Assembly: GCA_051313645.2 (NCBI GenBank)
Contig: JBNRSN020000024.1
Location: 83,080,001 to 83,144,000, forward strand
Direction: 5' to 3'
DNA length: 64,000 nt
Source: Centroscyllium fabricii
Lineage: Eukaryota
Shown one piece after another: positions 4,931 through 63,851 of this stretch. The notes beneath the pieces are model-generated. The model did not search any database and was not told where the DNA came from. It saw only the letters and a list, made by a program, of their open reading frames with translations. The translations under genes and the position numbers were made by a program. Within the stretch, counting starts at the first letter, position 1; each line of letters starts with the position of its first letter.

Positions 4931-5083
4931 CATACTAGTGCCCCGAGACCAACTAACTCCATGCACGGAGCGAACCTGGGCCACCTTGTTCTGTACGGCT
5001 CAGCTGCTCACCTGCTGAGCTGAGGTGGTTGCATTTTTTGTTCAATGTCCAGTTTAGTTGCACAGTGGCCTATAATACAAATA

Positions 5084-5429: not shown

Positions 5430-5431
5430 TA

Positions 5432-14683: not shown

Positions 14684-15014
14684 GTGAGGCTGTTGCGTCG
14701 TCACATTTGTTTCCCCCCCTTTTTACATTTTCAGCCAATACTTCAGTAAATCAATTCACCAGATACAGATGAGAAGAATGTTTGGTGCACCTTTAGATTA
14801 TCCATCAAGCCTTCTTTCTCTCCGCTCCTTCCTCCTTAATAAAATCAAGTGTTTCTTAAATAATTCCTCGGTTTCTCTCTACCCTACCTGGAAGTGTATT
14901 CCACTTGTTGATCAACCTTTGTGTGAAGGATAGCTTCCTGGCGTCAATCCTAAATTTGCTGTGTATTGGTTTGGCCCTCTGCCTCTTTGTCCCACTGTCA
15001 TGGTTTAGCTTATA

Positions 15015-15453
15015 CAGGTTGAGCACCGTTAATCCGGCACCGTCGGGACCAGGCTGGTGCCGGACCACTGAAAAATCCGAACCACTGAAGGTTCGGGGAG
15101 CACATGCGCAGACCATTCAAAATGGCCTCCATGCATGCGCAGACCATTCAAAATGGCCACCACGCATGTGCAGACCATTGAAAATGGCCGCTGCGCATGT
15201 GCAGACCATTCAAAATGGCCACCGCGCATGTGCAAACCATTCAAAATGGCCACCGCGCATGCGCAGACCATTCCAAATGGCCACCGCACAGGCGCAGACC
15301 ATTCAAAATGGCCGCTGCGCATGCACAGACCAGTCGGGGAGAGGCCTGCGCATCGTGAGCGTCCCTGGGATCACGTGGGCCATCCAGACGGATTCGTGCC
15401 GGACCACTGAAGGTGCCGGACCATCGGGTGCTGGATTAACGGTGCACAACCTA
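15015..15453. mobile_element. Tigger-like MITE (type A) with internal 31-bp tandem array
   Basis: TA-flanked TIRs CAGGTTGAGCACCGTTAATCCGGCACC; 7 full units of cgcgcatgcgcagaccattcaaaatggccac at 15101-15332. Confidence 0.87.
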
Positions 15454-16748: not shown

Positions 16749-16819
16749 AGTAGCTGAAATGTAAAATTCTAAGTTTGTGCCCCAGTTATGATGGATTTAT
16801 CTGGTCCCATCTTAAGCAT

Positions 16820-17135
16820 CCACTCCCTGCCCCATCGTGGCTGCAGTGTGCACTATCTACAGCATCTTCGACAACACCTCCCAAACCCATGACCGCCATC
16901 ACCTGGAAGTACAAGGGCAGCAGGCGCATGGGAACGCCCTCCCCTCCAAATCACACACCATCTCAACTTGGACATGTATCGCCGCTCTTTCAAAATCCTG
17001 CAACTCCCTTCCTAACAGCACTGTGGGAGCACCTTCACCACACGGACTGCAGCGGTTCAAGAAGAAGGCTCACCACCACTTTCTCGTGGTCAACTAGGGA
17101 TGGGCAATAAATGCTGGCCTTGCCAGCGACGCATA
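16820..17135 (+). mobile_element. 3' fragment of the tRNA-headed LINE family
   Basis: Tail caactagggatgggcaataaatgctggccttgccagcgacgc. Confidence 0.8.
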
Positions 17136-19946: not shown

Positions 19947-22177
19947 GAGTTTGCAGTAGGTTGCTATAAAGTCGGGGGAGGGAGAGCGGCAAATATCTAT
20001 TGGCTCAGTGTACATTTTAGTAGGGATTGGGGTTAGTGTTAACCACGCCTTGCGTGTGGTGAAAACGCAGCGAAGCTGTGGATGCCGAGTACTTGTACAG
20101 TAAATAAAATATGTTCACTGTGTTTATAACTGAACAGTACATCTTACAGCATTTCCTATCATGCATTGTGAAGCCAGGGCTAAAGGGGGAGGGGGTGGGG
20201 TGGGGGGTTTGAAATGGGACTGAGGAGGATGGCTGCTCTGGTCAAGGTCAGTCCCAGTGACCTACTTATTTGTATATAAAAAAAAAGTCAGTAACATTAA
20301 TTTGTTACTACTGTATAAAAAAGAAAAATTGTGCAGAATGGTAACTAAATTTTGTAGCAACTGAATTTTTTTCCAAAATTGAATCAATGCAATGCAGGTG
20401 TGTTGGTCTGTTGTAGTGTTATGGTTTCTAGGTCCAGACTCTTATCATTGTCCGAACTTAATAACGGCTTTAGTGAATGGACCGCTTGACTGATCCAGGT
20501 ACCACCTTCCTGAGAAAGTGACACCAGTGTGCTTTCTTATTTTGTTCCGCTCGCCTTTTTTTTAGCGTGACTTAATAGTGGGTAATAAATGCCGGCCTTG
20601 CCAGCGATGCCCACATCCCAGGAACGAATACCATACCTGATACTGTTACACTATCAGACTCCACAACTCCTTGATTTATTTTTGTATAAAGTATAAGTCT
20701 TTTCGCCACTGTTAATTCATCACTCTGTGTACAATTATAGACATTTGGAATATTGAAAACTATTAGGACATCTCAGACTTAAAAAAAAAAGCTTCAGCAC
20801 TCAATTGTGGGTAACGTAGATTACGGTACCGTGCTCCTCAAGTGAGAACAATGTAAAAAAAATAGGGAGAGAAACTGGTAGACTCTGAAGATTTAGCTTC
20901 TGGCAATCTGTCCTTGCATCCCCGTGTCATGTTACACTCCGAGCTCTCCTCTTGCAGGGATTTTATTTTTTGCAAAGTAATGGTTCGTCAGTGTTTTTAA
21001 TCACTGGTCAATTTCCTATGTAGACACAGTGCCTTTTCTTCTAAACAACCTAACACATTTTTTAAACGCACCTAAAGTAAAATTTACATTTTGATTAAAA
21101 TGATCTTAAGTGTTAAGTCTAACTAACTAAATGGCATAAATGGTTTGATGCTACAGTATAGGGTGAATTTTATTTCAGAAAGTTAAATTCAAAACCATCA
21201 CTTCAGAGGCGCGCTCGCCTGCAATGGAATTTGAAAGAAAAATCAGTAGAAATGATTCACGGCGACATTTTTTTATTAGTCGATCTCCTGTGGTGTTGCA
21301 CATGGGGAGGTGAGACCAATTGTAGGCTCCAGCTGAAGGAGGCTAGAGAAGAGGATAATTGGACCAGGCCGTGCAAAACGTAATTTGATCCCCATTTTAA
21401 AGTCATACGTTCTGTCCTTTTTATATACCCATTATAAATTCCTGTGTCCGCATGGAACTGTCTGGTAAATGTGTCAGGCTACAATTATACCACCGTTAGT
21501 GCTGGTGCTATAAGTACTTACACTTGGGGAGGAAGCTGTAATTACAGCCTGACATTTACACAGGCAATTTCTCCAGTAAATATGGACAGAAGAACTTACG
21601 TTGGAAAAAGTTCACAGGGAGTGTGTGTTGATGCAAGATTTTTAATATTTTATATCTGTGCGTGTGTGTATATGTGTGTAGCACAAACTCTAGCATTGCA
21701 GTTCCTGTAAATAAATGTGCTATAACTGCTAATGGTCTTTGAGCCCAGACAACAGTGAGATGCCGAGCAGTTTAGAGTTGAAAGTATTTTTAAAAGAATT
21801 CCTACAGTCTCATAGGTTTACAAAATATGTCTCCAGCATCCACGAACTTAAAAAAAAAAATAAAATGTTTTTAAATTAAATTACCAATTAAGTGATGGTC
21901 TACGACAGAAATATGCAATTCAGCTTTCTTTTAATCGAATTTTGGCTAACTTTATAAGTACCTTTTTCAGCTATTTAAAAAAAATAAATAGCTAGTTTTG
22001 CCAGGAGCGGTGGGTGGCCTAGATCACTTGCCTGAATTGTTTACACCTTGATAATTTCAGGAAGTCTTTGATCAGGTTTCCATGAAAGTTGATTAAAGTT
22101 GTTCTCTTGCGAGACTTGGACGTCTTCTTTTTTGAAGATGGGCTTAATGAGAACTCCTCTCTAGTTCCGCAAACATT

Positions 22178-29949: not shown

Positions 29950-30400
29950 CATCCCAGCCGCACAGTGGGTAGCACTCTCTCGCTTTGGAATCAGAAGGTT
30001 GTGGGTTCAAGTACCACTCGAGACTTGAGCAAAAAAATCTGGGCTGACACTCCATGCAGTACTGAGGGAGTGCTGCATTGTTGGAAGTACTGTCTTTCAG
30101 ATGAGACGTTGAACGGAGGCCCCATCTGCTCTCAGGTGGATGTAAAAGATCCCGTGGCACTATTTTGAAGAGGAGCAGGGGCGTTATCGCCAGTGTCCTG
30201 GACAATATTTATCCTTCAACAAAAACAAATTATGTGGTGATTTTCACATTGCGGTTTGTGGGACCTTGTCGAGTCAAATTGGCTGCCATGTTTCCTACAT
30301 TACAACAGTGACTGCACTTTAAAAGTACTTCATTGGCTGTAAAGCACTTTGGGACATCCTGAGGTTGTGAAAGGTGCTATAGAAATGCAAGTTTTTTTTT
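29950..30400 (+). mobile_element. Deu-domain SINE (SacSINE1-like) with L2-type tail
   Basis: tRNA-like head, conserved core aaattggctgcc..tttcctacattacaacagtgactgcactt, tail gtgaaaggtgctatagaaatgcaag. Confidence 0.75.
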
Positions 30401-31046
30401 CCCAGTTAGGAGGTACCACCAAGCACAAGGCACCTCCCCCAAGGCTGGTGGTTTGCCTGTAACTGCTGCCAGCCAGAGTAGGAGTACAAATCTGGGGGCA
30501 GGCTGTCCCGCTGCCCTCCTCTTTCAGGAAGCAAGTGTTGCACCGGCCCCATTCCTACTTGTAAAGCAGCAGAAATGGAGAAAAAGCAGCCAGATATTCC
30601 ATATTGTATTTTTTTCTTCCCGCTTCTGAAACTAGCGACTCCTGTTTGGATGCATTTTCACGGCCTCCAGTATGTCACGCATTTTTGAGGGAGGTGCGAG
30701 TGAGAGGCATCAAGACTGAGCCTTATCCTGTCCCTGCACACTTTCCAGCGTACCGGCCGGTGATCAGGACCAGGAACCTCGACTGAATTTATATTTTTTG
30801 TTTCCCTTTCCAACCCAATTGTAGACCCCCAATTACTGCTCATCAACTGACCAAACCAGATTCCTCCTGGTCAGTGGGCTGTTCCTGTACTGACTTAATC
30901 ATGTTTTGGGTTGGGAGGGAGGGGGGTGGGGGGAGGTTGGGGCACTCAAAGCATTATCTCCACTTCCAATGTTTTGCTGCAATAACGGATCTAAAGTCTT
31001 ACTTTAACAATCAAATTATATAATGATATAGTTAACAAATACATAC

Positions 31047-31625: not shown

Positions 31626-32010
31626 TAGAACATAGAAGATAGGAGCAGGAGTGGACCATTCGGCCCTTCGAGCCTGCTCTGCCATTCAACGAGATCATGG
31701 CTGATCATCCAAACCCAGCACCCTGTCCCTGCCTTCTCCCCATATCCCTCGATCCCTATCGAGCCTGCACTGACATATTCAAATCCCCCTTATCCCCGTA
31801 ACCCGACATATTCAATCCCCCTAACACGGAGGGTCAATTTATCATGGCCAATCAACCTAACCTGCACATCTTTGGACTGTGGGAGGAAACCGGAGCACCC
31901 GGAGGAAACCCACGCAGACACGGGGAGAATGTGCAAACTCCACACAGATAGTACCTGAGGCTGGATTTGAACCCGGGTCTCTAGTGCTGTAAGGCGACAG
32001 TGCCGCCCGT
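31624..32010 (-). mobile_element. HE1-like V-SINE, long CR1 tail
   Basis: tRNA-like head, V-domain and CR1 tail. Confidence 0.85.
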
Positions 32011-33761: not shown

Positions 33762-34356
33762 CTAAACAGAAAAAAGTCATATATTAGATTTTTTTTAAAT
33801 TAGCACATAGGGACCTGTGTATGCTGTTACATTTCATTACAGACAGTTAATGATCAATTCAAAATCTGATCAGTACAGTGGGTTTGGCTCAGGAACCTGG
33901 TGTTGGATTGAGCATAAACCAATAGGTCTCTTGACAGCTGGCACAGAGGAGACCTTCACTCTATCTGGAATGGTACAGTTTCAAGCTGAATTTTCGTGGA
34001 GTAAGAATCCATGGGACAAAACTGCTCTCAGTTCAACACAAACCAGCAATTACACCCGAGGCGGCAACTAGTGTGAAAAATGAAAAAACAAATGACACCA
34101 ATGTTCCTCCTAGGTTGAGGTTATTTGGGGGGGGAAGCTCTAATCTATAATAAACCTGTGCAATACCAGCGAGGGAAAGTTCAATGCCAACATTTCCACA
34201 CCTTAGCGAATGCAACAAACTTTAAAAAAAAAAAGAAAACTTAACATGCAGAGAGGCAGATCAGCATCTCTTACATCTGAAAGTAGAAAGCACCCAATTA
34301 CTCTGGTGGCAGTGGATTATTTTCCATATCCGTTTTAAATGAAGTTCATGATGGTA

Positions 34357-34845
34357 CAGGTTGAGCACCGTTAATCCGGCACAGCTGGGACCAGGCCCGT
34401 GCCGGAATACTGAAAAAGCCGAACGAATGAAGCTCTCCCGAGCGCATGCGCGGACCATTCAAAATGGCCACGCGCATGCGTAAAACATTGGAAATGGCCG
34501 CCGTACGTGCAGACCAGTCTGGACAAGCCCCGGAAGTTCGGGCGCGGTTGGAACCACGCCGTCGGGGGCCAGTGCGCTTTCGGGAAAGGCCCAGGGAGGG
34601 AGCCCGGTCTAACACTCCACGGGGCCCGAGCATCACAGACTCCAATTATTTCAGGTACAGGGTTTTTTGTAAAGCTCGGGAAGCGGCTAAGAGCGCCGCT
34701 GCGCACGCGCAGGCCAGTCGGGGATTGCGGACAACTCGCAACGGTGAGGAGCACCACTGCGCATGCGCCGACCACTCGGGGAAATCTGTGCCGGACGTCT
34801 GAAGCTGCTGGTTTTTCAGGTGCCGGATTAACGGTGCCCAACCTG
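34357..34845. mobile_element. Tigger-like MITE (type A)
   Basis: TA|CAGGTTGAGCACCGTTAATCCGGCAC ... GTGCCGGATTAACGGTGCCCAACCTG (right TSD reads AA). Confidence 0.85.
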
Positions 34846-35346
34846 AACAGTGGTTTAAACACATTTGATTCACAAACTGGTCGGAGGTGGGTTGAAAGCC
34901 ACGACTCTCCTTCTCCAGGCTGTCAGCCAGACTGGCTCAAGCCTTTGTCTCCCTCACAAACACAAGCTGACCAGAGCCATCATTTGCAAGCCACAGCTGA
35001 GTTTCCCCACCCCCTGCATTGCGAGGAGACTGGAGCATGGATTTTACGCTGGCGGCTCCTTTGCTGTAAAGTGGGCTCGGAGCTCATTTCCGCTGGAACT
35101 TTTCTCACTTTGCGGCCCGTGGTGGTTTTTGGGAATAGCCAGGTGTCGATCAAAGTGCCCATCTCAAGCACTTAAATTAAAATATTAATTTGAAAGTGTT
35201 CTGCACGCCATTCCGGAGTACAGGACGTCCGATTAAATCACACCCATGTAAAGTACGTGCAGGATCACTAGATGGCCTGCCATTCACGCACGCACACAGA
35301 GTTAGACAGATAGAATAATTACATTTATAGATAGTTATTGAATTAC

Positions 35347-36599: not shown

Positions 36600-37310
36600 A
36601 GCCAAGTGTCAGATTGGCTCACTGGTGGCACTCCCACCTCAGAGTTCGAAGGCGGTGGGATCATGCACCACTGCAGGATTTGGAACACAAGCTAGACTGA
36701 CACTGCGGTGCAGTTCCGAGGGAGTGCCGCACTGTCAGAGGTGCCGCCTTTCGGATGAGATTTTAAATGGAGGGCCCGTCTCCTTGTTCGGATGGATGTG
36801 AAAGATCCCATGACACTGTGCTGCGATTAGGAGGGGAGTTTTCCCGATGTCCTGGGCAATATTTGTCCAAATAGCCACCACCAAAACAGATTAACTGGTT
36901 GCTGATCTCACTGATGCTTGTGGGACTTTGTGTGTGAACTGACTACCGTGTTGGCCCATAAAACAGCAACTACACTTCAAAAACAATTCATTAGCTGTGA
37001 AGTGCTTTGGGATGTCCTGAGGATGTGAAAGGTGCGATCTGTGGTTTATCGCTCAGCTTTACACTAGTTGGTGAATTTTCCAACCAAGAAAACAAAGACT
37101 TGCATTATTGATACAGCGCCTTTCACGACCACCGGATGTCTCAAAGCGCTTTACAGCCAATGAAGTGCTTTTTGGAGTGTAGTCACTGTTGTGATGTAGG
37201 AAACGCGGATGCCAATTTGCGCACAGCAAGCTCCCACAAACAGCAGTGTGATAATGACCAGATAATCTATCTTTTTTGTTATGCTGATTGAGGGATAAAT
37301 ATTGGCCATC
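36600..37310. mobile_element. Two Deu-domain SINEs, tail-to-tail (+ ~36600-37040; - ~37095-37310)
   Basis: Similarity to 29950-30400. Confidence 0.7.
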
Positions 37311-37859: not shown

Positions 37860-38582
37860 TCACGTGTGGCTCACCACTGCGTTCTCCCGGTCTTCTGACT
37901 ATTCCGTCCTCAACTCCTTGTTTTCAAATCCCTCAATGGCCTCGTCCCTCCCCATTTAGGGCGGCACGGTGGCATAGTGGTTAGCACTGTTGCCTCACAG
38001 CGCCAGGGGCCCGGGTTCAAATCCGGCCTCGGGTACTATCTGTGTGGAGTTTGCACATTCTCCCCGTGTCTGTGTGGGTTTCCTCCGGGTGCTCCGGTTT
38101 CCTCCCACTGTCCAAAGATGTTAGGTTGATTGGCCAGGAAAAATTGACCCTCAGTGTTAGGGGAAATGAATATGTGAGGTTACGGGGATAGGGTGCGATA
38201 TGTGTCTGCAGGCTCGATGGGCCGAGATGGCCTCTATCTGCACTGTAGGGATTCTATCTCTGTAATCTCCTCCAGCCCCACAACCCCCTCCACCCAGATA
38301 TCTGCGCCCCTCTAATTCTGGCCTCTTGAGCATCCCCGATTATAATCGGTCCACCATTGGCGGTCGTGCCTTCTGTTGCCTGGGCCCGAACTTCTGGAAT
38401 TCCCTCCCTAAACCTCTCCACCTCTCCTCCTTTAAGATGCTCCTTGAAGCCGACCTCTTTGACCAAGCCTGCTCTAATTTCTCATCAGGCCCGGTGTCAA
38501 ATTTTGTTTGGTAAACGCTCCTGTGAAGCGCCTTGGGAAGTTTTACTACGTTAAAGGTGCTATATAAATGCAAGTTGTTGCT
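37860..38582 (+). mobile_element. L2-type LINE 3' fragment interrupted by a V-SINE
   Basis: IGGRAFCCLGPNFWNSLP...FKMLLEADLF; tail gtgaagcgccttggga...aaaggtgctatataaatgcaag. Confidence 0.75.
37959..38256 (+). mobile_element. HE1-like V-SINE, short tail
   Basis: A box tggcatagtgg, B box ggttcaaatcc, V-domain, tail gcactgtagggattctat. Confidence 0.85.
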
Positions 38583-38771: not shown

Positions 38772-39071
38772 CAGCACGGAGGCATAGTGGTTAGCACTGT
38801 TGCCTCAGCGCCAGGGGCCCGAGTTCAAATCCGGCCTCGGGTGACTATCTGGAGTTTGCACATCCTCCCCGTGTCTGCGTGGGTTTCCTCCGGGTGCTCC
38901 GGTTTCCTCCCGCAGTCAAAAGATGTGCGGGTTAGGTTGATTGGCCATGATAAATTGACCCTTAGTGTTAGGGCGATTAAATATGTGGGGTTACGGGGAT
39001 AGGGTGGGATATGTGTCGGTGCAGACTCGATGGGCCGAAATGGCCTCAATCTGCACTGTCGGGATTCTATG
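38772..39071 (+). mobile_element. HE1-like V-SINE, short tail
   Basis: As 37959; ends about 11 nt from the INTS2 donor at 39083. Confidence 0.85.
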
Positions 39072-42532: not shown

Positions 42533-42958
42533 AGGTTTGGTAGTGTAGTGGTTAGGTTAGTGGACTAATAATCCAGAGAACGCAACATCAAATCTCACCA
42601 TGGCAGTTTGAGAACCTGAATTTCAGTTTAATAAAATCTGGAAATAAAAAGCTGGAATCAGTAAAAGTGATCATGAAACTATCGGATTGTGGTAAAACCC
42701 AACTGGTTTACTAATGGCCTTTAGGTAAGGAAACCTGCTGTCATCACCTGGCTCAGCCTGTATGTGACTCCAGAGGCCCACGCCCAATGTCGATGATCCT
42801 TATCTGCCCTCTGAAGTGGCCTGGCAAGCCACTGGATTGCATCAAAGAGTATCACATGGACTGTAGCGGCTCAAGAAACCTACGACCACCATCAGACCAA
42901 TTAGGCGATGGCCAATAAATGCCGGCCTTGTCTGTGATGCCCACATCCCGAGGGTGAA
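42533..42958 (+). mobile_element. tRNA-headed SINE sharing head and tail with the LINE at 59729 (older copy)
   Basis: ggtagtgtagtggtta head, body aaacccaactggtttactaatg, tail caataaatgccggcc...gatgcccacatccc. Confidence 0.75.
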
Positions 42959-42974
42959 GACTGAAAATGCACTA

Positions 42975-43546
42975 CAGGTTGAAGTTCGTTAATCCGGCAC
43001 GGGCGGTACCAGGCCTGTACCGGACAAGTGAAAATCCCGAACGATTGAAGCTTCGGCGAGCGCATGCGCAGACCATTCAAAATGGCCGCCGCGAAAGGCC
43101 GGCGGCCATTTTGAGTGGTCTGCGCATGCGCTGATCGTTCGGGGAGGCTCGCAACGGCCAGGCTCGGGGAAGCTCGCAGCGGGGAGGCTCGCAGCGGCCA
43201 GGCTCGGGAAAGCTCGCAGCGGGCAGGCTCGCAGCGGCCAGGCTCGGGGAGGCTCGCAGCGGCCAGGCTCGGGAAAGCTCGCAGCGGCCAGGCTCGGGAA
43301 GGCTCGCAGCGGCCAGGCTCGGGAAAGCTCGCAGCGGCCAGGCTCGGGAAAGCTCGCAGCGGCCAGGCTCGGCCATTGTGAATGATCTGCGCATGTGCTC
43401 GCCGTTCGGCGGCGCATGCGCAGATCATTCGCCGAAGCATCGATCGCGGTGGCCATTTTGCGCATGCGCAGGGCAGTCGGGGAACTTATTGCCAGATGTT
43501 CGAAGTTGCCGGTTTTTCGGGTGATGGATTGACGAACTTCAACCTG
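42975..43546. mobile_element. Tigger-like MITE (type B) with internal ~25-bp tandem array
   Basis: TA-flanked TIRs CAGGTTGAAGTTCGTTAATCC; ggctcgcagcggccaggctcgggga repeated over 43140-43372. Confidence 0.87.
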
Positions 43547-43776
43547 TACAGTGTTTAGGAGCAGGAAAAAGCCCATTAAGTCCAGCAAGCCCATCACTTT
43601 TAGATTGTATCCCAGAATCTTCTGACTGAGAAGTGACAGTGCTACTGAGACAAGCTGATATGTTTCTCTCTCCACGGATGCTGCCTGGCCTGCTGGGTAT
43701 TTACAGCATCTTCTGTTGTTACATCCTCTTAATACATTTGCTGTGATTTTTGCTCCTCTCACTGTTGGTGACTCAC

Positions 43777-46662: not shown

Positions 46663-47051
46663 ACATAGAAACATAGAAGATAGGAGCAGGAGTAGGCCAT
46701 TCGGCCCTTCGAGCCTGCTCCGCCATTCAATGAGATCATGGCTGATCATCCAAACCCAGTACTCCGTCCCTGCCTTGTCCCCATATCCCTCGATCCCTAT
46801 CGAGCCTGCACCGACACATATCCCACCCTATCCCCGTTATTCAATCCCCCTAACACTATGGGTCAATTTATTATGGCCAATCAACCTAACCCGCACATCT
46901 TTGGACTGTGGGAGGAAACCGGAGCACCCGGAGGAAACCCACGCAGACACGGGGAGAATGTGCAAACTCCACACAGATAGTACCCGAGGCTGGATTTGAA
47001 CCCGGGTCTCTAGTGCTGTGAGGCAACAGTGCTAACCACTATGCCACCGTC
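46663..47051 (-). mobile_element. HE1-like V-SINE, full length, long CR1 tail
   Basis: Head, V-domain and (tttctatg) tail. Confidence 0.88.
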
Positions 47052-47451
47052 CGTCTATTATCAGGTAGGCCAGAAGCAACACAAGCTGAACCCGCATTTC
47101 CCTGACCGAATTCTCCAGGCTGCACTGTCTGCTGCGCATAAGTAATATTTCCATCCCTTTCACAGAAGCCTCTCAGGGTCAAGATTGCTGACAATTTGTG
47201 CTCATTTTTGGACACCAAGGGAATTTTTTGGACACTTAAAGGAATCGAGGGATATGAGAATCAGGTGGGAAGGTGGAGTTGAGGCAGAAGATCAGCCATG
47301 ATCGTATTGAATGGTGGAGCAGGCTCGAGGGGCCGTATGGCCGACTCCTGCTCCTATTTCTTCTGACCGATTTCTGACCAGCTGGATACAATATACATGC
47401 ATGATGCCAAAATACTCTCTTCCCGTGAAATGTTCAGACATTTTTCTACTA

Positions 47452-47806
47452 CAGGTTGACCTTCGTTAATCCGGCACGGTCGGGGCCAGCACCGTGCCGA
47501 ATTTTTGAAAACGCCGAATGATTGAAGCTTCGGCGGCGCATGCGCAGACCATTCAAAATGGCTGCCGTGAAATTTTTAATGGTCTGCGCATGCGCTCGCC
47601 GAAGCATCGATCGTTCGGGGAGGCCCGGGCATGCGCAGCCAAGCGCGGCGGCCATGTTGCGCATGCGCAGGACAGTCGGGGAGGCCCGGACATGCACAGC
47701 CACGTGCGGCGGCCGTTTTGCGCATGCGCAGGGCAGTTGGGGAAATCTTTGCCGGACGTCTGAAGCTGCCGGTTTTTCGTGTGCCGGATTAACGGTGCCC
47801 AACCTG
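47452..47806. mobile_element. Tigger-like MITE with mixed (B-left, A-right) TIRs
   Basis: TA|CAGGTTGACCTTCGTTAATCCGGCAC ... GTGCCGGATTAACGGTGCCCAACCTG|TA. Confidence 0.85.
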
Positions 47807-47956
47807 TACGAGTGATGTTTGAACGATTTATAGGTGTCATCTGAACTCCTCAGACACCCGTGCAATCATCTCCTTTTCTTAAAATGCACGCCAGCCGCTT
47901 TCCGAGGCCTCCCCGGTTTGTGTGCCTAATCCCCGAGTCAGTTTTCACGCTGTTAC

Positions 47957-48121: not shown

Positions 48122-48899
48122 CTAAGGGACAGGAAAATCTCGTCAGTTCCGGATGTGCCTTGCGGTACATAGATCAGGCCTTTCCTGACATCTGAATTAG
48201 CAATATTATTTAACGCAGTCATTCCTCATTGTATTACTGATCTACTGTGACCTCCCCTCCCCCCACTTGTTAGAACACACATTATTTAGAGCGCCTAGAG
48301 AAACCATTTAAAACACCCACTTGGCCAACACGCTGCTTTACACTATGTTTCCACCATGTCTGGTGCTTTGTTAACTCACTCACTCTGTGAGGAGGACCCA
48401 CCCTCCTGGGGGTCTGGGTTCTTACTTTAGGAGACTAAACACGTCGGTCAGTCTGTCACTTTCTCAGTAATACACAAAGTCAGAAACTGTAAAATAATTA
48501 AAGTTTATTACCCAGTACTTCACTCTGAGAGACCCCTTGTGTTTGCACACAAGCATAGCAACCCAGAAGTGCGCTCTCGCTCTGAGACTGCAATTATTTA
48601 TACAAACATAAATGTAAAGACCTTGCAAAAAGATTAAACGTACATGCTCAGTGAATAATTCTGAAAAATGAAAACAACTAATGAAAAAATAAAGAGACAG
48701 TACAAACCCAATTAAATGTCAACATCTAGTGTTGACTCCTTCTTATCTCTGCAGCCGCAGCTTTGTTTATGAAAAAGAAAGATCTCTATATAGACAGTCT
48801 GTCGCTATACTTTTTACCTCTTTGCTACCAAACTTTTAACCCATGTCAAACTATAGTAAAGCAATCTAGAGTTAGCCAAAGTTTATCAGCTTGACTTGA

Positions 48900-49345
48900 A
48901 AGAAAGAAAAAAAGACTTGCATTTATATAGCGCCTTTCACGACCACCAGACATCCCAAAGTGCTTTACGGCCAATGAAGTACTTTTGAAGTGTTGTAATG
49001 TGGGAATCGTGGCAGCCAATTTGCGCACAGCAAGCTCCCACAAACAGCAACGTGATAATGACCAGATAATCTATTTTAGTGATATTGATTGAGGGATAAA
49101 TATTGGCCTCAGGACACTGGGGAGAACTCCCCTGCTCTTGTTCGAAATAGTGCCGCGGGATCTTTTTACATCCACCCGAGAGGGTTTAACGTCTCGTCTG
49201 AAAGACAGCACCTCCGACAGTGCAGCACTCCCCTCAGTACTGCAGTGCAGTCAGCCTATATTTTGGTGTTCAAGTCTCTGGAGTGGGACCAGAACCCACA
49301 ACCTTCTGACTCAGGAGAGAGTGCCACCAACTGAGCCAGGGCGGA
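48900..49345 (-). mobile_element. Deu-domain SINE (SacSINE1-like)
   Basis: Reverse complement of the 29950 family, near full length. Confidence 0.8.
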
Positions 49346-49788
49346 CACTAATTATAGTCCCCATTCCAGGCTGGCAGCTACCTGTACAACTTCACTGAAA
49401 CTTTACATGGCTCCTTTCAAAGAAGAATCCAACCTCATGTTAAAAGAGGGAGCTAATGTTTTGGAGGACTGTAGCTGTATTTTTGCATTCAAGCAAGATT
49501 ACAGGGCAGCCATGTAGGGCAAGTGAGTGGGGCAAGTCCAATCTCCATGCTCCCCCCACCTCTGCTGAAATGGTCATGCTTGCCGGGGTTCGATCTCACC
49601 GGCAGCAGCGGCATCCTTGTAGCTCACATGGCAGTTCTTCACCTGCGCACATCGACAGCGAATGCTGGAAGGCAACATATCCAAACCCCAGCCTGTCTGT
49701 ACGCTTTCCAGCAGGGTCAATGGACAGTGATTGTGAGTCACAACTCTGCCCGTCTTTTTATCCCTCTCTCTGGCCCAGGGTTGCTGAG

Positions 49789-49953: not shown

Positions 49954-50071
49954 GTGCAGAGTCCAATTGTAGGTATCCAAATCACTACCCCAGCTCAGAC
50001 TTGCTAACTCGGCACAAACCCGAAACCTTCCCCGATTGGAATGGCCCAATACCACACCAGGCACCACCATA

Positions 50072-50572
50072 GGGGAGGCGGTGGCGTAGTGGTTATGTCA
50101 CTAGACTAGTAAGCCAGAGGCTCAGTCAAATGCTCTGAGGACATGGGTTCAAATCCCACCACGGCAGCTGGTGGAATTTAAATTAAATTCAATTTAATTC
50201 TGGAATTAAATGTTAGTCTTAGTAATGGTGACCATGATACCATTGTCGATTGTTGCAAAAACCCATCTGGTTCACTAATGTCCTTTTGGGAGGGAAATCT
50301 GCCGTCCTTACCCGGTCTGGCCTACATGTGACTCCAGACCCACAGCAATGTGGTTGACTCTTAATGCCCTCTGAAATGGCTCAGCAGACCACTCAGTTGT
50401 AATCAACCGCTACGCAACATTGTGGGTGCACCTACACCATATGGACTGCAGCGGTTCAAGGCGGCGGCTCACCACCATCTTCTCAAGGGCAATTGGGGAT
50501 GGGCACTAAATGCAGGCCTAGCCAGTCAGTGACGCCCACATCCCATCAACGAATAAAAACAATTAAAAAAAA
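50072..50572 (+). mobile_element. tRNA-headed SINE sharing head and tail with the LINE at 59729
   Basis: A box tggcgtagtgg, B box ggttcaaatccc; body colinear with 59729-60012, then jumps to the 63083-63230-like tail and poly(A). Confidence 0.85.
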
Positions 50573-50810
50573 TTACCCAGGGCCCTGTACCACACCAGGC
50601 ACCACCTTTACCCAGGGCCCAGTATCACCTTTACCCAGGGCCCAGTACCACCATTACCCAGGGCTCAGTATCACCTTTACCCAGGGCCCAGTACCACCAT
50701 TACCCAGGGCCCAGTATCACCATTACCCAGGGCCCAGTATCACCATTACCCAGGGCCTGGCATCACCATTACCCAGGGCCCAGTACCACTCCAGGCACCA
50801 CCTTTACCCA
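50573..50810 (+). repeat. 23-bp minisatellite (ttacccagggcccagta[t/c]cacc[a/t]), about 8 units
   Basis: Direct inspection. Confidence 0.9.
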
Positions 50811-51121: not shown

Positions 51122-51319
51122 CTATATGCAAGAGTGATGGAAATAGTTAGCATGTCCATCAATGAGCCACTTCGACAGACACAGAACCTGAGCAGCAATC
51201 TAAACATTTCAAATAAAAAAATCGAGGCTTCAAGTAAGAAAAGTAAAACCTTCATTAGGTCAACTCAATTTGATAAAACAAATTGGTGGTAGTTATCAGG
51301 CTAACTTAAACGAAAGAAA

Positions 51320-51755
51320 AAAGAACATTACATTTATATAGCACCTTTCACAACCTCAGGGTGTCCCAAAGCGCTTTACAGTCAATGAAGTACTTTTGTA
51401 GCACAGGCGCTGTTGTAATTTGGGAAACACAGCAGCTAATTTGCACACAGCAAGCTCCCACAAAGAGCAATGTGATAATGAGCAGATAATCTGTTTCTTG
51501 TGATGTTGATTGAGCCATAAATATTGGCCAGGGCACCAGGGAGAACTCCCCTGCTTTTCTTCCAAATGGTGCCGTGGGAACGTTTATGTCCACCTGAGAG
51601 GACATCGGAACGTCTCATCCGAAAGGCGGCACCTCCGACCCTCGGTACTACATTGAAGAGTCAGCCTTGATTTTTGTGCTCAAGTCCCTGGAGTGGGGCT
51701 TGAACCCACAAACTTGTGACTCGGAGGCGAGAGCGTCAACACTGAGCCACGGCCA
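51320..51755 (-). mobile_element. Deu-domain SINE
   Basis: Similarity to 48900-49345. Confidence 0.78.
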
Positions 51756-52718: not shown

Positions 52719-53112
52719 ATAGAAACATAGAGAAACATAGAAACTAGGAGCAGGAGTAGGCCATTCGGCCCTTCGAGCCTGCTCCGCCATTCAATGAGAT
52801 CATGGCTGATCATCCAAACCCAGTACCCTGCCCTCGCCCCATATCCCTCGATCGCTATATCGACACATATCCCACCCTATCCCCGTAACCCCACATATTC
52901 AATCCCCCTAACACTAAGGGTCAATTTATCATGGCCAATCAACCTAACCCGCACATCTTTGGACTGTGGGAGGAAACCGGAGCACCCGGAGGAAACCCAC
53001 GCAGACACGGGGAGAATGTGCAAACTCCACACAGATAGTACCCGAGGCTGGATTTGAACCCGGGTCTCCAGTGCTGAGAGACAACCGTGCTAACCACTGT
53101 GCCACCGTGCCG
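52719..53112 (-). mobile_element. HE1-like V-SINE, long CR1 tail
   Basis: Head, V-domain and tail. Confidence 0.88.
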
Positions 53113-53621
53113 CGATGGGCTTGCCATCACAATGCTCCCACTCATTTTAAAACTGGCATTTAAAATTTTGATTTAGGGTTAGGAGTTCGAATATTAGCAT
53201 TTTATTTTTGCTCGGAAGGTTTGTCGCCCTTTACCCCCAGGCAGCGATTGTCGTCCAGAATCTCAGTCAAGTGGCCATTCTTCCTGCCTTGGCACAGAGT
53301 TTCGGCAGGTTATACAACTGTGGAGGCATCACACCAAGCCTAATCCTGTCCTTAACTGGCGTTTACACACGTGCATCCCCAGCAAGGGGGTCGGTCGCTG
53401 CACAGCAATCGAGAATGGAAATCCTTGCAAGTTTTCCCCTCATGCTGCGCAGTCAAACTCAGTGCGGACTGGGATTGAATATGGGGCCTTCCTCGTCTTG
53501 ATAGCTCAGACACAGTGGACCCGATTCTCCTTTGTTTAATACACCAGTTCCCAAGGCATTATGTCCAAGGATTAGGAGCGGAAACTCTTAACACTGCGCA
53601 ACTTCTCTCCCTCGATTAGCT

Positions 53622-54001
53622 GCGGCACGGTGACATAGTGGTTAGCACTGTTGCCTCACAGCACTAGAGACCTGGGTTCAAATCCAGCCTTGGGTACTAT
53701 CTCTGTGGAGTTTGCACATTCTCCCTGTGTCTGCGTGGGTTTCCTCCGGGTGCTCTGGTTTCCTCCCACAGTCCAAAGATGTGCGGGTTAGGTTGATTGG
53801 CCGGGATAAATTTACCCTTAGTGTTAGGGGGATTGAATATGTGGGGTAACGGGGAGAGGGTGGGATATGTGTCGGTACAGGCTCGATAGGGATATGGGGA
53901 CAAGGCAGGGACAGGGTACTGGGTTTGGATGATCAGCCATGATCTCATTGAATGGCGGAGCAGGCTCGAAGGGCCGAATGGCCTACTCCGGCTCCTAGTT
54001 T
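53622..54001 (+). mobile_element. HE1-like V-SINE, long CR1 tail
   Basis: Head, V-domain and tail. Confidence 0.88.
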
Positions 54002-54157
54002 CTCTCACTTTCCCACGTGGCAGTAAAGCTTGGTGCTCATATAAGCTATTTAAACGAGCTGAATCAGGAAACACGGGCGGGTTTGAAGAGGGGGAGCAGG
54101 CCTGTGACTCTAAACCATGGCGGGTGGGGGTGGGGGGTATGGAAAGCACAACAGGAA

Positions 54158-56325: not shown

Positions 56326-57189
56326 TTTTTCAACTCATCTTATTGAGGTAACGTTCTGGATCCCCTCATTTTCCGTACCGTTTACTATCTTTTGTACCTC
56401 ACATCTCAGGTACCTTTTAAGGCTGTAAAGTCAATTTCTCCAGTATTTTTCTCATAACTCAACCTTTTACAGCAGGGATCAGCCCACAGTCAAACCCAAG
56501 TGGCGTGAGACTCCTCCACCACGGTGGGGGGGGGGGCTTCACACTGCTCTGCTCCACCGTCAGGTTGGGACTCGACTCCAGAGTTGGACCAAAGTAGAAA
56601 TCACTTTGTAGTGACGCAAACATCGCAGTACCTGTACTTCCTTAACACTAAGGTTATTTGTTGGGTTTCTAAGTTGCTGCCATGAAACCTCATCACAAAC
56701 ATACAATGGGAATATCAATCATTTCAGTTCCAGCGTTATTTCTGACTTCATTGTAATGTCTTTGCAGAGACAAATTAGGAATAAAACATAAAATATATAA
56801 TTTAAATCTTACATAGAATCTACAGCACAGAAACAGGCCATTCGGCCCAACTGGTCCATGTCAGCTCCAGACAAGCCTCCTCCCTCCCAATATATTTTGC
56901 ACTTACTGTCCACAAAGCTTACTTCCTGTTGCTACAATTTTTGGTCACATTTTTGTGTCATCATTTACCACTGTAGTTTGCTATGTAAACATTTCCTATT
57001 AATATTTGTTATGTCAACTGTCACAATGTATTTGCGGGCTCTGGCCAGCGAGTTTCTGAAGTCTCCTTCCCAACTCCGTCGCCATCTTGTATACTAAAAA
57101 GAACCTTATATTCATCAACTGACCGTGGGTGATGCCATGAGCAAACTACAAGTCCCTATTGTATTAAAAAGAATACAATTCTGAATACA

Positions 57190-57990
57190 ATTTTAACCCT
57201 GAAAAGTGTGAGGTGAAGCATTTTGGAAGGACGAACAAGGCAAGGGAATACACAATGAATGGTAAGATCCTAGAGAAGACAGAGGATCAGAGGGACCTTG
57301 GTGTGCATGTACATAGATCCCTGAAGACAGCAGGACAGGTGGATAAGGTGGTTAAAAAGGCATCTGGGATACTTGCCTTCATTAGCCGAGGCATAGAATA
57401 TAAGAGCAGGGAGGTTATGATGGAGCTGTACAAAACGCTGGTAAGGCCACAGCTGGAGTACTGTGTGCAGTTCTGGTCGCCACACTATAGGAAGGATGTG
57501 ATTGGTTTGGAGAGGGGGCAGAGGAGATTCACCAGGATGTTACCTGGGCTGGAGCGCTTCAGCTATGAAGAAAGACTGGACAGGCTGGGGTTGTTTTCCT
57601 TGGAGCAGAGAAGGCTGAGGGGGGTCCTGATAGAGGTGTACAAAATTATGAGGGGCATAGATAGGGTAGATAGAAAGGAACTTTTTCCCTTAGTATAGGG
57701 GTCAATAACCAGAGGGCATAGTTTCAAGGTAAGGGGCAGGAGGTTTAGAGGGGATTTGAGGAGGAACCTTTTCACCCAGAGGGTGGTTGGAATCTGGAAC
57801 TCACTGCCTGAAAGGGTGGTAGAGGCAGGAACCCTCACAACATTCAAGAGGCATTTAGATGAGCACTTGAAATGCCATAGCATACAAGGCTACGGACCAA
57901 ATGCAGGAAAATGGGATTAGAATAGACAGGGCTCGATGGCCGGCGTGGACGCGATGGGCCCCTTTCTGTGCTGTATAACTCTATCTATGA
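57190..57990 (+). mobile_element. CR1-type LINE 3' fragment
   Basis: ORF 57213-57698 LYKTLVRPQLEYCVQFWSPHYRKD...SLEQRRLRG. Confidence 0.9.
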
Positions 57991-58155: not shown

Positions 58156-58544
58156 CTAAAATTAGAAAGAAATACGAGAATGTGATCAGCATGTCATTAA
58201 ATTTAATATTCAAAATTAAAGACCCTTGTTTAAAAATTTACCCCACACATTTCATCACACAATGGCAGGAAGGAGGTTTACATGTGCCATCCTTCTACCT
58301 GCCCGAGTTCCTGCTCTTTGACCTGCAGGAGCTACTGAGGTACTTCACCCTTAGCCAGGCAAGAGTCAGCACCATCACTGCACACGACCTGGGAACTTGT
58401 TGTGAAGGGGCACCAGGAGATATCTGGAAATGCACCAACTTTCTGAACAGCTGGACATTCCACTAAATGATGGGGCAACGGAGACAGGATGAAAAGCATT
58501 TTCTCATTTTCAAACTCGTGCTCCAAATAGATAACTTGAAAACT

Positions 58545-59025
58545 GAAAGACAGATTGTATTTCTATAGCGCCTTTCACAACCACCAGATGTCCAAAAGTG
58601 CTTCACAGCCAATGACGTACTTTTTTTTGAAGTGTAGTCACTGTTGTAATGCAGGAAATGCGGCAGCCAATTTGCGCACAGCAAGATCCCACAAACAGCA
58701 ATGTGATAATGGCCAGATAATCTGATTTTAGTGATGTTAAGGGATAAATATTGGCCCCAGGACACTGGGGAGAACTCCCCTGCTCTTCTTCAAAATAGTG
58801 CCGCGGGATCTTTTACATCAAACTGAAACAGCAGACGCCCCGGGGCCTCAGTTTAAACGTCTCATCCGAAAGACACCACTTCTGACAGTGCAGCGCTTCC
58901 TCAGTACTGCACTGGGAGTGTCAGCCTAGATTTTTGTGCTCAAGTCTCTGGAGTGAGACTTGAACCCACAACCTTCTTCTGACTCAGCGGCAAGGGTGCT
59001 ACCCACTGAGCCAAGGCTGACACGA
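58545..59025 (-). mobile_element. Deu-domain SINE
   Basis: Full-length reverse copy of the 29950 family. Confidence 0.8.
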
Positions 59026-59728
59026 ACAGAGAAAAAAATTATTTAAAAAGCCAGCACAGAGGGCGAGAGCTCTAACTCTCAGTGCTAAGGAGTGGGAGGA
59101 GGCACGGTTGGTCTCCCAGTCTCTAGTCAGTTGGGGTATCCTGCCTGGTTGGTATTTCACGCATCCTGGAAATCAACCCAAGGCACATCAGCACAACACT
59201 GAGCACCACATTGCATCTGCACTCTCCAAGTAGCAAAGCTACGAATCTAGGTGACCTGAAAAAAATTAAAATATTTAAAATCTGTATTACAAAAGGTTTA
59301 TGTTTCCTAACTCAGTTTCTATAGAACTTGTCTGTGCACAGCACTGTGCCTCCCCCACACAAGCAGATAAAGCCAGTTGCACCCACGTAAACTGATCACA
59401 TACTGGTTTCTGCTTAATTGGTAACTGTGTATAATATTTTCCTTCTCGTTTGCACCTACCGCTCCTGACTCATGCTGGAGTATGTCTCCACAGCAGCCGC
59501 TTGTGTGGTACCTTGCGCAAGTGGCTGTGCTTGATGTGGGGGGCTGAGACAGTGAGCATCAGCTGGTGTCACCCAATGTTCACATGCATGCATAGTTCAT
59601 GCACAATTCACTGGGTGGCATTCAGGTGCAAGAATCCCAGCCAATTCTTCCCCTCCTAAGCCCAGGAATACGGAGACCCTACTGTTGCCCCAGCTCAGCT
59701 AACTCAGTACAAACTGGGATTCCATACC

Positions 59729-62700
59729 GGGGAACGGTAGCATAGTGGTAATGTCACTGCTAGCAATCCAGAGGCCTGGACTAATGATCCAGAGACGCAA
59801 GTTCAAATCCCACAACGGCAGCCGGGGAATTTAAATTCAGTGAATTAAATAAATCTGGAATAAAAAGATAGTATCAGTACTGGGGACCCTGAAACTATTG
59901 GATTTGTCGTAAAAACCCATCTGGTTCACTAATATCCTTCAGCAATGTGGTTGACTCTTAACTGCCCTTTGAAATGGCATAGCAAGTCACTCAGTTGTAA
60001 CCAACTGCTACGAAACAAAATAAGAAGAATGAAACTGGACGGACACGGCAACGGCACACCCAGCCCAGTCGACCCTGCAGAGTCCTCCTCACCAACATTT
60101 GAGGACTTGTACCAAAATTGGGAGAGCTGCCCCACAGACGAGTCAAGCAACAGCCTGACATAGTCATACTCACAGAATCACACCTTTCAGCCAATGTCCC
60201 AAACTCCTCCATCACCATCCCATGGTATGTTCGGTCCCACCGGCAGGATAGAACCACCAGGGGTGGCGGCACAGCGGTATCCTGCGTGGGAGTGGCCCTG
60301 GGACATTGACTCCAGACCCCATGAAGTCTCATGGCTTCAGGTCGAGCATGGGCAAGGAAACCTTCTGCTGATTACCACCTACCGCCCTCCCTCAGCTGAT
60401 GAAATAGTACTCCTCCATGTTGAACACCAATTGGAAGAAGCACTGAGAGTAACAAGGGCATAGAATGTACTCTGGGTGGGGGACTTCAACATCCATCACC
60501 AAGAGTGGTTCAGTAGCACCATTACTGGCCGCGTCCTGAAGGACATAACTGCCAGTCTGGGTCTGCAACAGGTGGTGAGTGAACCAACACAATGGGAAAA
60601 ACCTACTTGACCTCGTCCTCATCAATCTACCTGTCGCAGATGCATCTGTCCATGACAGCATTGGCAGCAGTGACCACCGCACAGTCATCGTGGAGACGAA
60701 GTCCCGTCTGCACACCGAGGACACCCTCCATCGTGTTGTGTGGCACTACCAACGTGCTAAATGGGATAGATTCAGAACGAATCTAGCAGCTCAAAACTGG
60801 GCATCTGTGAGGCGCTATGGGCCATCAGCAGCAGTAGAATTGTATTCCACCACAATCTGTAACCTCATGGCCCAGCGTATACCTCACTTTACCATTACCA
60901 TCAAGCCAGGAGACCAACCTGGGGAAGCTGCAACACAGGACTACATGCATGCTAAAAAGCAAAAGCAGCATGCTATAGACAGAGCTAAGTGATCCCACAA
61001 TCAACGGATCAGATCAAAGCTCTGCAGTCCTCCCACATCCAGTCATGAATGGTGGTGGACCATCAAACAACTAATGAGAGGAGGAGGCGCCATGAATATC
61101 CCCATCCTCAATGATGGTGGAGACCAGCACGTGAGCGGCACGGTGGGCGGAACGGTGGCACAGTGGTTAGCACTGTTGTCTCACAGCACTGGAGACCCGG
61201 GTTCAAATCCAGCCTCGGGTACTATGTGTGTGGAGTTTGCACATTCTCCCCGTGTCTGCGTGGGTTTCCTCCGGGTGCTCCGGTTTCCTCCCACAGTCCA
61301 AAGATGTGCGGGTTAGGTTGATTGGCCATGATAAATTGACCCTTAGTGTTAGGGGGATTGAATATTTGGGGTTACGGGGATAGGGTGGGATATGTCTTGA
61401 TGCAGGCTCGATAGGGATCGAGGGATATAGGGAGAGGGCAGGGGCGGGGTGCTGGATTTGGATGATCAGCCATGATCTCATTGAATGGCGGAGCAGGCTC
61501 AAAGGGCCGAATGGCCTACTCCTGTTCCTTGTTTCTATGTGAGTGCAAAAGACAAGGCTGATGCGTTTACAACCAACTGCAGCCAGAAGTGCCGAGTGGA
61601 TGACCCATATCGGCCTACTCCTGAGGTCCCTACCATCACAGAAGCTATTCTTCAGCCAATTTGATTCACTCTACGTGGTATATCAAGAAACGGCTGAGCG
61701 CACTGGATACAGAAAAAGCTGTGGGTCCTGACAACATCTCGGCTATCGCACTGAAGACTTGTGCTCCAGAACTAGCCGTGCCTCTAGCCAAGCTGTTCCA
61801 GTACAGCTACAACACTGGCATCTCCGACAATATGGATAACTGCCCAGGTATGCCCTGTCCACAAAAAGCAGGACAATTCCAACCCGGCCAATTACCGCCC
61901 CATCAGTCTACTTTCAATCATCAGCAAAGTGATGGAAGGGGCCATCAAGAATGCTATCAAGCGGCACTTACTCACTGATGCCCAGTTTGGGTTCCGCCAA
62001 GACCACTCGGCTCCCGACCTCATTACAGCCTTGGTCCAAACATGGACAAAGGAGCTGAATCCCAGAGGGGGGGTGAGAGTGACTGCCCTTGACATCAAGG
62101 CAGCATTTGACCGAGTGTGGCATCAAGGAGCCCGAGTAAAACGGAAGTCAATGGGAATCGGGGAAAGCGCTCCACTGGCTGAAGTCATACCTAGCACAAA
62201 GAAAGATAGTTGTGGTGGTTGAAGGTCAATCGTCACTGCAGGAGTTCCGCAGGGCAGTGTCTCAGGCCCAACCATCTTCAGCTGCTTCATCAATTACCTT
62301 CCCTCCAACATAAGGTCAGAAATGGGGATGTTTACTGATGACTGCACAGTGTTCAGCGCCATTCGCAACTCCTCAGATAATGAAGCAGTCCATGCCCGCA
62401 TGCAACAAGAGCTGAACAACGTTCAGGCTTAGGTTGATAAGTGCCAGGTAACATTCGCGCCACAGAAGTGCCAGGCAAAGACTGTCTCCAACAAGCGAGA
62501 GTCTAACCACTTCCCCATGACATTCAACGGCATTACCATCGCCGAATCCCCCACTATCAACATCCTGGAGGGAGTCACCATTAACCAGAAATTTAACTGG
62601 ACCAGCCACATAAATACTGTGGCAACAAGAGCAGGTCAGAGGCTGGGTGTTCTGCGGCGAGTGTCTCACCTCCTGACTCCCCAAAGCCTTTCCACCATCT

Positions 62701-63230
62701 ACAAGGCACAAGTCAGGAGTGTGATGGAATACTCTCCACTGGCCTGGATGAGTGCAACTCCAACAACACTCAAGAAGCTCGACACCATCCAGGACAAAGC
62801 AGCCCACTTGATTGGCACCCCATCCACCACCTTAAACATTCACTCCCTCCACCACCAGCGCACCGTGGCTGCAGTGTGTGCCATCTACAAGTTGCACTGC
62901 AGCAACTCACCAAGGCTTCTTCGGCAGAACCTCCCAAACCCACGACCTCTACCACCTAGAAGGACAAGGGCAGCAGGCGCATGAGAACACTGCCATCTCC
63001 AAGTTACACACCATCCTGACTTAGAAGTATATCGCCGATCCTTCATTGTTGCTGGATCAAAATCCTGGAACTCCCTCCCTAACAGCACTGTGGGAGTACC
63101 ATCACCACACGGACTGCAGCGGTTCAAGAAGGCGGCTCACCACCACCTTTTCAAGGGCAACTAGGGATGGGCAATAAATGCTGGCATTGCCAGCGACGCC
63201 CTGATCCCATAAACCAATTATAAAAAAAAA
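59729..63230 (+). mobile_element. Near-full-length, decayed single-ORF LINE (APE + RT; CR1/L2-group, Zenon-like) with a tRNA-like 5' head
   Basis: A/B boxes at 59737-59812. APE motifs PDIVILTESHL, TTYRPPS, GDFN, LDLVLIN and SDH. RT motifs KAVGPDNI, YRPISLL, QFGFR, LDIKAAFDRVWH, GVPQGS and FTDD. Tail and poly(A); frameshifts and stops present. Confidence 0.88.
61136..61538 (+). mobile_element. HE1-like V-SINE nested in the LINE
   Basis: 5-bp duplication gtgag (61131-61135 and 61539-61543); the LINE resumes colinearly. Confidence 0.88.
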
Positions 63231-63329
63231 GAGCCTGGTACCTACCTGATCTGTATGGCTTACTGCCATAGAGCAGGAGATTTCCCCCTCAGTCTATCAT
63301 AGGAGTTAGACAACAGTATGTGTATGTGA

Positions 63330-63680
63330 CAGCTAGGTAGAGTGCGGTGGGTAATGCTCTACCTCGGAGTCTTAAAACGTTAAACTGAGGTCCTAGCCAC
63401 CTGTTCCGAAGGTTCAACTGAACATTAAGGATCCCATGGTACTATTCTAAGCACATTTAGGTTTCCTGGCAAACATTGCTCCCCCAAATAACATTGTCAA
63501 AAATAGATTAACTGGTCATTCATCTCATTCCTGTATGGGGGATCTTGCTGTGCATAAAATGGTTGCCACATTTGCATACATAGCAACAAATGCACTTCAA
63601 AATAACTCATTGTATGTGATGAACTTTGGGATGTTTCTGCAAGATGTGATGAGGCCTGTGTAAATGCAAGTTCTTTCTAC
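63330..63680 (+). mobile_element. Degenerate Deu-domain SINE
   Basis: gatcttgctgtgcataaaatggttgcc...taaatgcaagttcttt. Confidence 0.6.
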
Positions 63681-63851
63681 TTTAGCTGAAAGACAAGGGA
63701 GAGCGCAGAGGGTCAGAGGATGAAAGTCTCAAGTCAAGTACACAAAGATTTGTGATTCAAATTGGTCAAGAATTGAAAAGTTTACAGGCGCCGAGAGTGT
63801 TCCCCTATATACAAATGCAACGGTAAAGGTGTGAGCAAGATGGGGACTCAC

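Follow-up and report, generated by a model that had tools for sequence, protein, structure and literature searches.

By the usual division, LINEs rely on RNA polymerase II (Pol II) for their transcription and SINEs on RNA polymerase III (Pol III; PMC10886601). The Zenon elements of elasmobranchs have been described as CR1-group LINEs of about 3.3 kb that lack ORF1 and end in poly(A) (PMC13343379); the supplementary table of that study lists ten Zenon consensuses, and for six of the seven elasmobranch Zenon families it gives 59 to 2,313 insertions per family (denominators as read by the present analysis); the supplement includes a few copies whose ORF is intact, and young subfamilies exist.

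Several described systems resemble parts of the shark system. The Persaeus SIDEs of Lepidoptera are short, non-autonomous elements of several origins that join the 5′ end of Zenon to its 3′ end (the final part of the ORF with the 3′ UTR); as described, they differ from the shark forms in having neither tRNA homology nor a Pol III promoter (PMC6740152), whereas the 5′ end of the shark LINE itself is probably tRNA-derived, so that its deletion product would be a SINE in structure. RTE-1_DAn and related elements are autonomous LINEs containing tRNA-like sequence; they belong to another clade and other hosts, and the likeness is drawn from a description that gives neither the position nor the function of that sequence (PMC5786205). 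The bipartite SINEs Bov-tA, AfroSINE, CoeSINE4 and hagfish SINE2-9/10 combine a tRNA head, a LINE 5′ part and a LINE 3′ end (PMC5786205, PMC7245038); their head, however, is joined to a deleted RTE or Vingi element whose autonomous LINE is head-less, whereas the autonomous shark LINE is headed. The bivalve SINEs mobilised by CR1-Zenon likewise have tRNA heads and Zenon tails, but are reported to have the 3′ end alone in common with Zenon (PMC11481361).

An earlier note on this DNA had proposed an under-described system of a tRNA-headed LINE and its SINE derivatives. This is correct for the head: a family-wide, tRNA-derived 5′ end is present in the data of PMC13343379 and unremarked in its main text, which has no match for tRNA or promoter. 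The LINE family, the missing ORF1 and the poly(A) had already been published there, and head-plus-tail Zenon derivatives were known from moths and butterflies (PMC6740152). No published description of a tRNA-headed shark Zenon or of its short forms was found in the literature searched; one may exist beyond that scope, in Repbase, Dfam, SINEBase, subscription journals, preprint supplements or the Zenodo deposit.

A decayed Zenon LINE with a tRNA-like head

Within the window, the whole 64-kb stretch of Centroscyllium fabricii DNA that was analysed, positions 59729–63230 are almost certainly a dead elasmobranch Zenon LINE with a single ORF for endonuclease and reverse transcriptase (RT), of a family whose full-length form is headed throughout sharks and rays. 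Its parts are as follows.

59729–63230, plus strand: full-length Zenon LINE copy, decayed, with a 403-bp SINE insertion and deletions
59729–59822, plus strand: tRNA-like head; aligned by eye with the beginning of SquAca_Zenon-1, it shows about 93% identity
59738–59748, 59776–59792 and 59801–59809, plus strand: A box, second hairpin and B box of the head, which also has a damaged anticodon arm
59823–60012, plus strand: 5′ UTR body, common to the short elements; 57 nt are missing between 59939 and 59940
60013–60081, plus strand: pre-endonuclease stretch, with weak homology to the sequence that precedes the ORF in head-less relatives
60082–61135, plus strand: APE endonuclease and linker (PF14529, E 1.9e-9), with stops, frameshifts and a deletion near 60920
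61136–61538, plus strand: younger tRNA-headed SINE inside the ORF, 403 bp, with a 5-nt target duplication (GTGAG)
61539–63161, plus strand: RT and C-terminal domain, broken (PF00078, E 1.5e-14 and 2.1e-11)
63162–63230, plus strand: 3′ UTR and poly(A), the latter at 63222–63230

The A box (TAGCATAGTGG, starting at 59738) and the B box (GTTCAAATC, starting at 59801) confirm the tRNA-like head that had been claimed for this LINE; the window contains seven A and B box pairs, whereas 30 dinucleotide shuffles average 0.4 per window. Some 350 nt separate the 5′ end from the first endonuclease motif, VLLTNI, which begins near 60082, so that there is no space for an ORF1; the APE and RT domains were recognized by Pfam (PF14529 at 60290–60601 and PF00078 at 61827–62981; three of eight scanned pieces positive), in agreement with the earlier claim of an endonuclease close to the 5′ end; the terminal poly(A) was also as claimed. 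The proposed extent, head, RT and tail of the element were correct, while the inserted SINE and the deletions had been overlooked; once the insertion is removed, the net length is 3,098 nt. The copy is dead, its ORF interrupted by stops and frameshifts, its 5′ UTR shortened by 57 nt, and further sequence deleted near 60920. Its pieces are collinear with three anonymous single-ORF proteins of 908–937 aa, the best anonymous relatives have 42–45% identity, and the 3′ end of the Zenon ORF, in the 61539–63161 segment, extends into the tail common to the short elements.

The assignment to Zenon is based on the single ORF with APE and RT, the lack of ORF1, the poly(A) and identity to a named consensus. 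Compared by eye with SquAca_Zenon-1 of the spiny dogfish, the copy has 209 aligned nt upstream of the deletion with 14 substitutions, and 80 nt downstream of it with 5 (about 93% identity, covering the first 400 nt of the consensus alone, as given in the PMC13343379 supplement), and it tracks SquAca_Zenon-3 into the endonuclease, again by eye. These likenesses suggest a squalomorph shark as the host. It belongs to the same family as SquAca_Zenon-1, -2 and -3 and the CarCar, RhiTyp, ScyCan and HypSab_Zenon-1 consensuses (PMC13343379), and differs from these only by decay.

The LINE was inserted without a target duplication and has 7 additional bases at its 5′ end; its flanks (59690–59728 and 63231–63270) form an older, reverse-strand SINE-like head, with the insertion within the B-box region of the latter. 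Part of the pre-endonuclease stretch (60031–60081) is basic in the endonuclease frame (HRPRHRKRQRQ in the anonymous relative P0049) and resembles a nuclear localisation signal; it has no AUG start.

Short elements and fragments

Other Zenon pieces in the window include two head-plus-tail elements.

50072–50572, plus strand: head-plus-tail element whose head and body run to about 50415 and are followed by Zenon's last ~150 nt, the ORF end included; best-preserved cloverleaf
42533–42958, plus strand: more diverged head-plus-tail element with a single-arm head and a junction that differs from 50072
8220–8876, minus strand: 5′-truncated Zenon copy of a second subfamily
10631–11180, plus strand: old Zenon fragment, about 71% identical
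16807–17132, plus strand: Zenon 3′ fragment, its tail 91.5% identical to the 59729 copy
20579–20629, plus strand: short Zenon tail fragment

The element at 50072 aligns with 59729–60012 and then with 63083–63226, just as the earlier note had described a jump from the head side of the LINE to its tail; it retains about 345 nt of the Zenon 5′ end. The 3′-only fragments were also found (8220–8876, 10631–11048, 16862–17132 and 20579–20629). The element at 42533, previously taken for an older, similar form, does align with both LINE ends and is more diverged; it differs in having a degenerate B box, in missing the 20-nt second arm, and in a junction that enters the tail about 20 nt further on. A discrete junction shared among the short elements was thus not found within the 64-kb window, where each head-plus-tail junction is seen once. 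Both elements are collinear with the two LINE ends and lack the middle, as do SIDEs, the internally deleted LINEs of the Persaeus type; as for the traits of a tRNA-derived SINE, the 50072 element has the boxes, an ARAGORN match at relaxed threshold only and no Rfam match, and the 42533 element has its degenerate B box and no match. Complete at its 5′ end and terminated by an A tail, the 50072 element looks like a retroposed unit (poly(A) is found on the 8220 copy as well). The elements at 50072 and 42533 probably both behave as SINEs that have kept head and tail and lost the ORF; their differing junctions would fit repeated internal deletion, by analogy with the origin of Persaeus from lepidopteran Zenon (PMC6740152).

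The tail of the 50072 element is 94.1% identical to the 8220 copy, with diagnostic changes in common, and 82.4% identical to the 59729 copy; the heads of 50072 and 59729 are 80.7% identical. By these similarities the 50072 element is assigned to the subfamily of the 8220 copy, other than that of the 59729 LINE, and the full-length form of this subfamily is absent from the window. Since the 50072 element has the 57 nt that the 59729 copy lacks, it cannot derive from this copy. The earlier picture of a LINE together with its own SINE derivatives therefore stands for the presence of head-plus-tail forms, and fails for the descent of 50072 from the neighboring LINE.

An identity of the short elements with MetaSINEs was considered and rejected, as they show no resemblance by eye, after the tRNA head, to two Meta-bearing families (PMC4824008). 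The flanks of the 50072 element (49985–50071 and 50573–50810) also consist of an old reverse-strand SINE-like head, its 5′ part apparently tandemly amplified on the right; two of the three headed insertions thus lie at old SINE-like heads, which may reflect chance or a target preference.

Origin and structure of the head

A tRNA origin of the head is likely; which tRNA it came from, with threonine as the candidate, is less sure. At 91% of its threshold, ARAGORN assigns the 50072 head to tRNA-Thr(AGT), drawn with an extra arm that is long; none of 1000 shuffles gives a match, but at this relaxed setting three other places in the window match as well. The heads at 59729 and 42533 stay without a match even then. 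At the normal threshold ARAGORN finds no tRNA in the 59729, 50072 or 42533 heads, the Rfam tRNA model matches neither the 59729 nor the 50072 head, and Rfam finds no tRNA or ribozyme on head or body. In folding, the 344-nt 5′ module does not outperform shuffled sequence (z −0.52).

The A and B boxes of the Zenon heads are 63–65 nt apart, against 45–48 nt for the other pairs in the window; this long spacing is due to the extra arm, which resembles a duplicated anticodon arm. Between the two window copies, three of the five pairs of this second arm have changed on both sides and yet remain paired (a simulation designed post hoc gives P of about 0.04), and by eye the consensuses of white shark, catshark and whale shark retain the stem (PMC13343379). 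These compensatory changes point to a possible role at the RNA level, for which a promoter would have no need.

The head as a trait of elasmobranch Zenons

The PMC13343379 supplement gives the first 400 nt of seven elasmobranch Zenon consensuses (white shark, stingray, whale shark, catshark, and three from dogfish), which represent five species in five orders. All seven start with the head and body and continue with the same pre-endonuclease sequence without ORF1; in all of them the 5′ end lies 8–10 nt upstream of the A box. The 59729 locus is therefore not a one-off juxtaposition, and neither a different 5′ end nor an ORF1, which the earlier note had named as evidence against its reading, was found among these consensuses. 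None of the three hagfish and coelacanth Zenon consensuses bears the head, the coelacanth 5′ end being poorly supported. Two exact B-box strings were found in six of the 1,004 supplement rows (400 letters per row), all of them elasmobranch Zenons, and a third matched none of these rows. The A and B boxes are near consensus in six of the seven elasmobranch Zenons while the cloverleaf drifts; in stingray, the B box of the consensus is damaged.

Among 14 anonymous proteins examined by eye (of 150 listed), three (P0049, P0050 and P0056) read through from the 5′ body into the endonuclease; a search for junction-spanning peptides gave no candidates, and DNA pattern scans of viral and prokaryote collections gave no match. 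A metagenome scan for relatives yielded 37 loci, none close to the shark element, from which 17 with long matches were picked by hand. The shark head has no match at the 5′ ends of the 37 loci, and neither an A and B box pair nor an ARAGORN match was found in the 13 relatives with more than 300 nt of upstream sequence. The stretch just 5′ of the ORF, on the other hand, is homologous to the two closest relatives, L003 (score reached by 0 of 500 shuffles) and L001 (P 0.01). Against L003, region 59940–60100 gives a score that 0 of 500 shuffles reach, compared with P 0.66–0.97 for the head; the last 50 nt before the 50072 junction match L003 weakly (P 0.046). Since the pre-ORF stretch is homologous to head-less relatives and the head is not, the head resembles a replacement 5′ end; from its distribution in the consensuses we infer that it was acquired before the shark/ray split. 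Both relatives share a conserved 5′ UTR of 230–300 nt without A and B boxes (L001 440–770 and L003 360–600), a useful outgroup for the ancestral 5′ end.

Transcription and translation

Pol III terminates at runs of four or more T. The earlier expectation of a sense strand depleted of TTTT is supported by the count, one in 4,554 nt across four Zenon copies, with that run missing from three other copies, but not by its significance: for the 59729 copy the deficit has P values of 0.29, 0.066 and 0.32 in dinucleotide, base and synonymous-codon shuffles, respectively (the last with two of ten pieces out of frame). By eye, the first 400 nt of the seven elasmobranch consensuses contain no TTTT. Three CR1 fragments in the same window have 11 in 1,491 nt, and all 17 hand-picked metagenomic relatives have 4–26 each; of 17 relatives with long open frames, however, two also contain a single TTTT, and the 558 nt of a Rex1-like fragment are free of it. 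TTTT depletion was consequently rejected as proof of Pol III transcription and is kept as compatible with it.

No ATG opens a frame that continues into the endonuclease; the sole in-frame ATG, at 59974, starts a Met-Ala-stop. Stop read-through from this site was considered and rejected, because the length of the linker varies and just three of the six consensuses checked by eye stay in frame. An out-of-frame ATG at 60029, visible in six of the seven elasmobranch consensuses, opens a 44-codon ORF (60029–60160) that overlaps the endonuclease start. R2 elements, which are excised from uncapped RNA made by Pol I, are likewise not known to have a conserved AUG.

A tRNA-like promoter head on a coding LINE suggests Pol III transcription. 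An ancestor of the elasmobranch Zenons would have captured a module resembling tRNA(Thr), which became its 5′ end, and the A and B boxes would form an internal Pol III promoter that moves along in every full-length copy. Pol III would transcribe about 3.3 kb of a T-poor strand nearly free of the TTTT stop signal; the Zenon RNA would be translated without a conventional AUG start, and the Zenon protein would bind the 3′ tail and insert the RNA by target-primed reverse transcription, which is established for CR1-group LINEs. Molecules without the ORF that keep head and tail would still be transcribed and mobile, and would thus behave as SINEs. This whole chain, including Pol III transcription of full-length Zenon, is judged close to evenly balanced, with doubt slightly ahead. 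Somewhat more doubtful, and proposed tentatively, is the wider reading that elasmobranch Zenon is an autonomous element, abundant since before the shark/ray split, whose 3.3-kb Pol III RNA from a captured tRNA promoter is translated without cap or AUG, and which gives rise to a SINE in one step with each loss of its middle.

Length speaks against the Pol III chain: Pol III elements are usually much shorter, SINEs measuring 100–700 bp (PMC10886601). The head may instead have been retained for an RNA role, such as 5′-end definition by tRNA-type processing, protection, export or translation; the full-length RNA would then be made by Pol II from a 5′ UTR promoter or by read-through from host genes, and Pol III may serve the short derivatives only. 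The two-sided changes that keep the second hairpin paired and the persistence of its stem in three shark consensuses agree with such a role, the TTTT deficit is accounted for by base and codon composition, and some LINE clades cut themselves from host transcripts by 5′ RNA structures (PMC5786205). It is harder to reconcile with A and B boxes that stay near consensus in six of seven consensuses while the cloverleaf drifts, and with Zenon 5′ ends located where SINE 5′ ends are; it is regarded as possible, with considerable doubt. With either polymerase, the direction of events could also have been the reverse: a Zenon-tailed SINE would have come first, its head and body passing to the LINE through template switching or recombination; the short elements would then be related to the headed LINE as sisters or ancestors and would not be its deletion products. 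The homology to head-less relatives, which lies mainly downstream of the 50072 junction, and the simpler, single-arm head of 42533 are in keeping with this order; the weak match of the last 50 nt before the junction is not, a single arm can result from deletion between direct repeats, and two short elements with different junctions and matches to different subfamilies are what repeated internal deletion predicts, as in Persaeus (PMC6740152). A SINE-first origin is a serious possibility, rated as somewhat less likely than not.

That the head is a neutral relic of a former function, and the short elements single deletions that never amplified, is unlikely: each junction does occur only once in 64 kb and the stingray B box is damaged, but the head persists across five orders with structure-preserving changes, and the 50072 element has the ends of a retroposed unit. 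The reading of the locus as a chance SINE/LINE juxtaposition, with the published consensuses as artefacts of automated extension into an abundant SINE, is largely refuted and highly improbable. The consensuses were indeed extended automatically and then inspected (PMC13343379); however, seven of them from five species agree on the junction, the 59729 copy displays it in genomic sequence, it is spanned by three anonymous proteins, and the B-box strings occur in no other supplement row.

With its tRNA head retained over five elasmobranch orders, this LINE family is a natural test of the Pol II/Pol III rule, of the length limits of Pol III transcripts, and of whether Pol III RNA can act as mRNA; since young Zenon subfamilies exist, the question is testable in cells. 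If true, the headed Zenon would offer a one-step origin of SINEs, a direct route from LINE to SINE. If the head is an RNA structure under Pol II transcription, it would still be an undescribed kind of LINE 5′ end, though a less surprising one.

Other repeats in the window

The SINE inserted in the Zenon ORF at 61136–61538 belongs to a young tRNA-headed family, presumably HE1-like, with 88–93% identity and many tail-only pieces (52735–53113, 46671–47050, 53622–54003, 31630–32003, 9485–9813, 37959–38257 and 38774–39070). An older SINE family of about 450 bp, with 70–80% identity between copies, is found at 58534–59026, 48894–49351, 51293–51753, 29960–30401, 36606–37308 and 63465–63683; one copy has an A and B box pair on the minus strand (59013–58965). 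Canonical, TTTT-rich CR1 RT fragments lie on the plus strand at 5–247, 9924–10469 and 57168–57869, and an RT fragment that we take to be Rex1/Babar-like lies on the minus strand at 406–963. Finally, a GC-rich family that carries inverted as well as tandem repeats internally (15013–15341, 42971–43553, 47448–47824, 34354–34860 and 5081–5576) gave only weak, sub-threshold miRNA-like Rfam matches and is possibly MITE-like.
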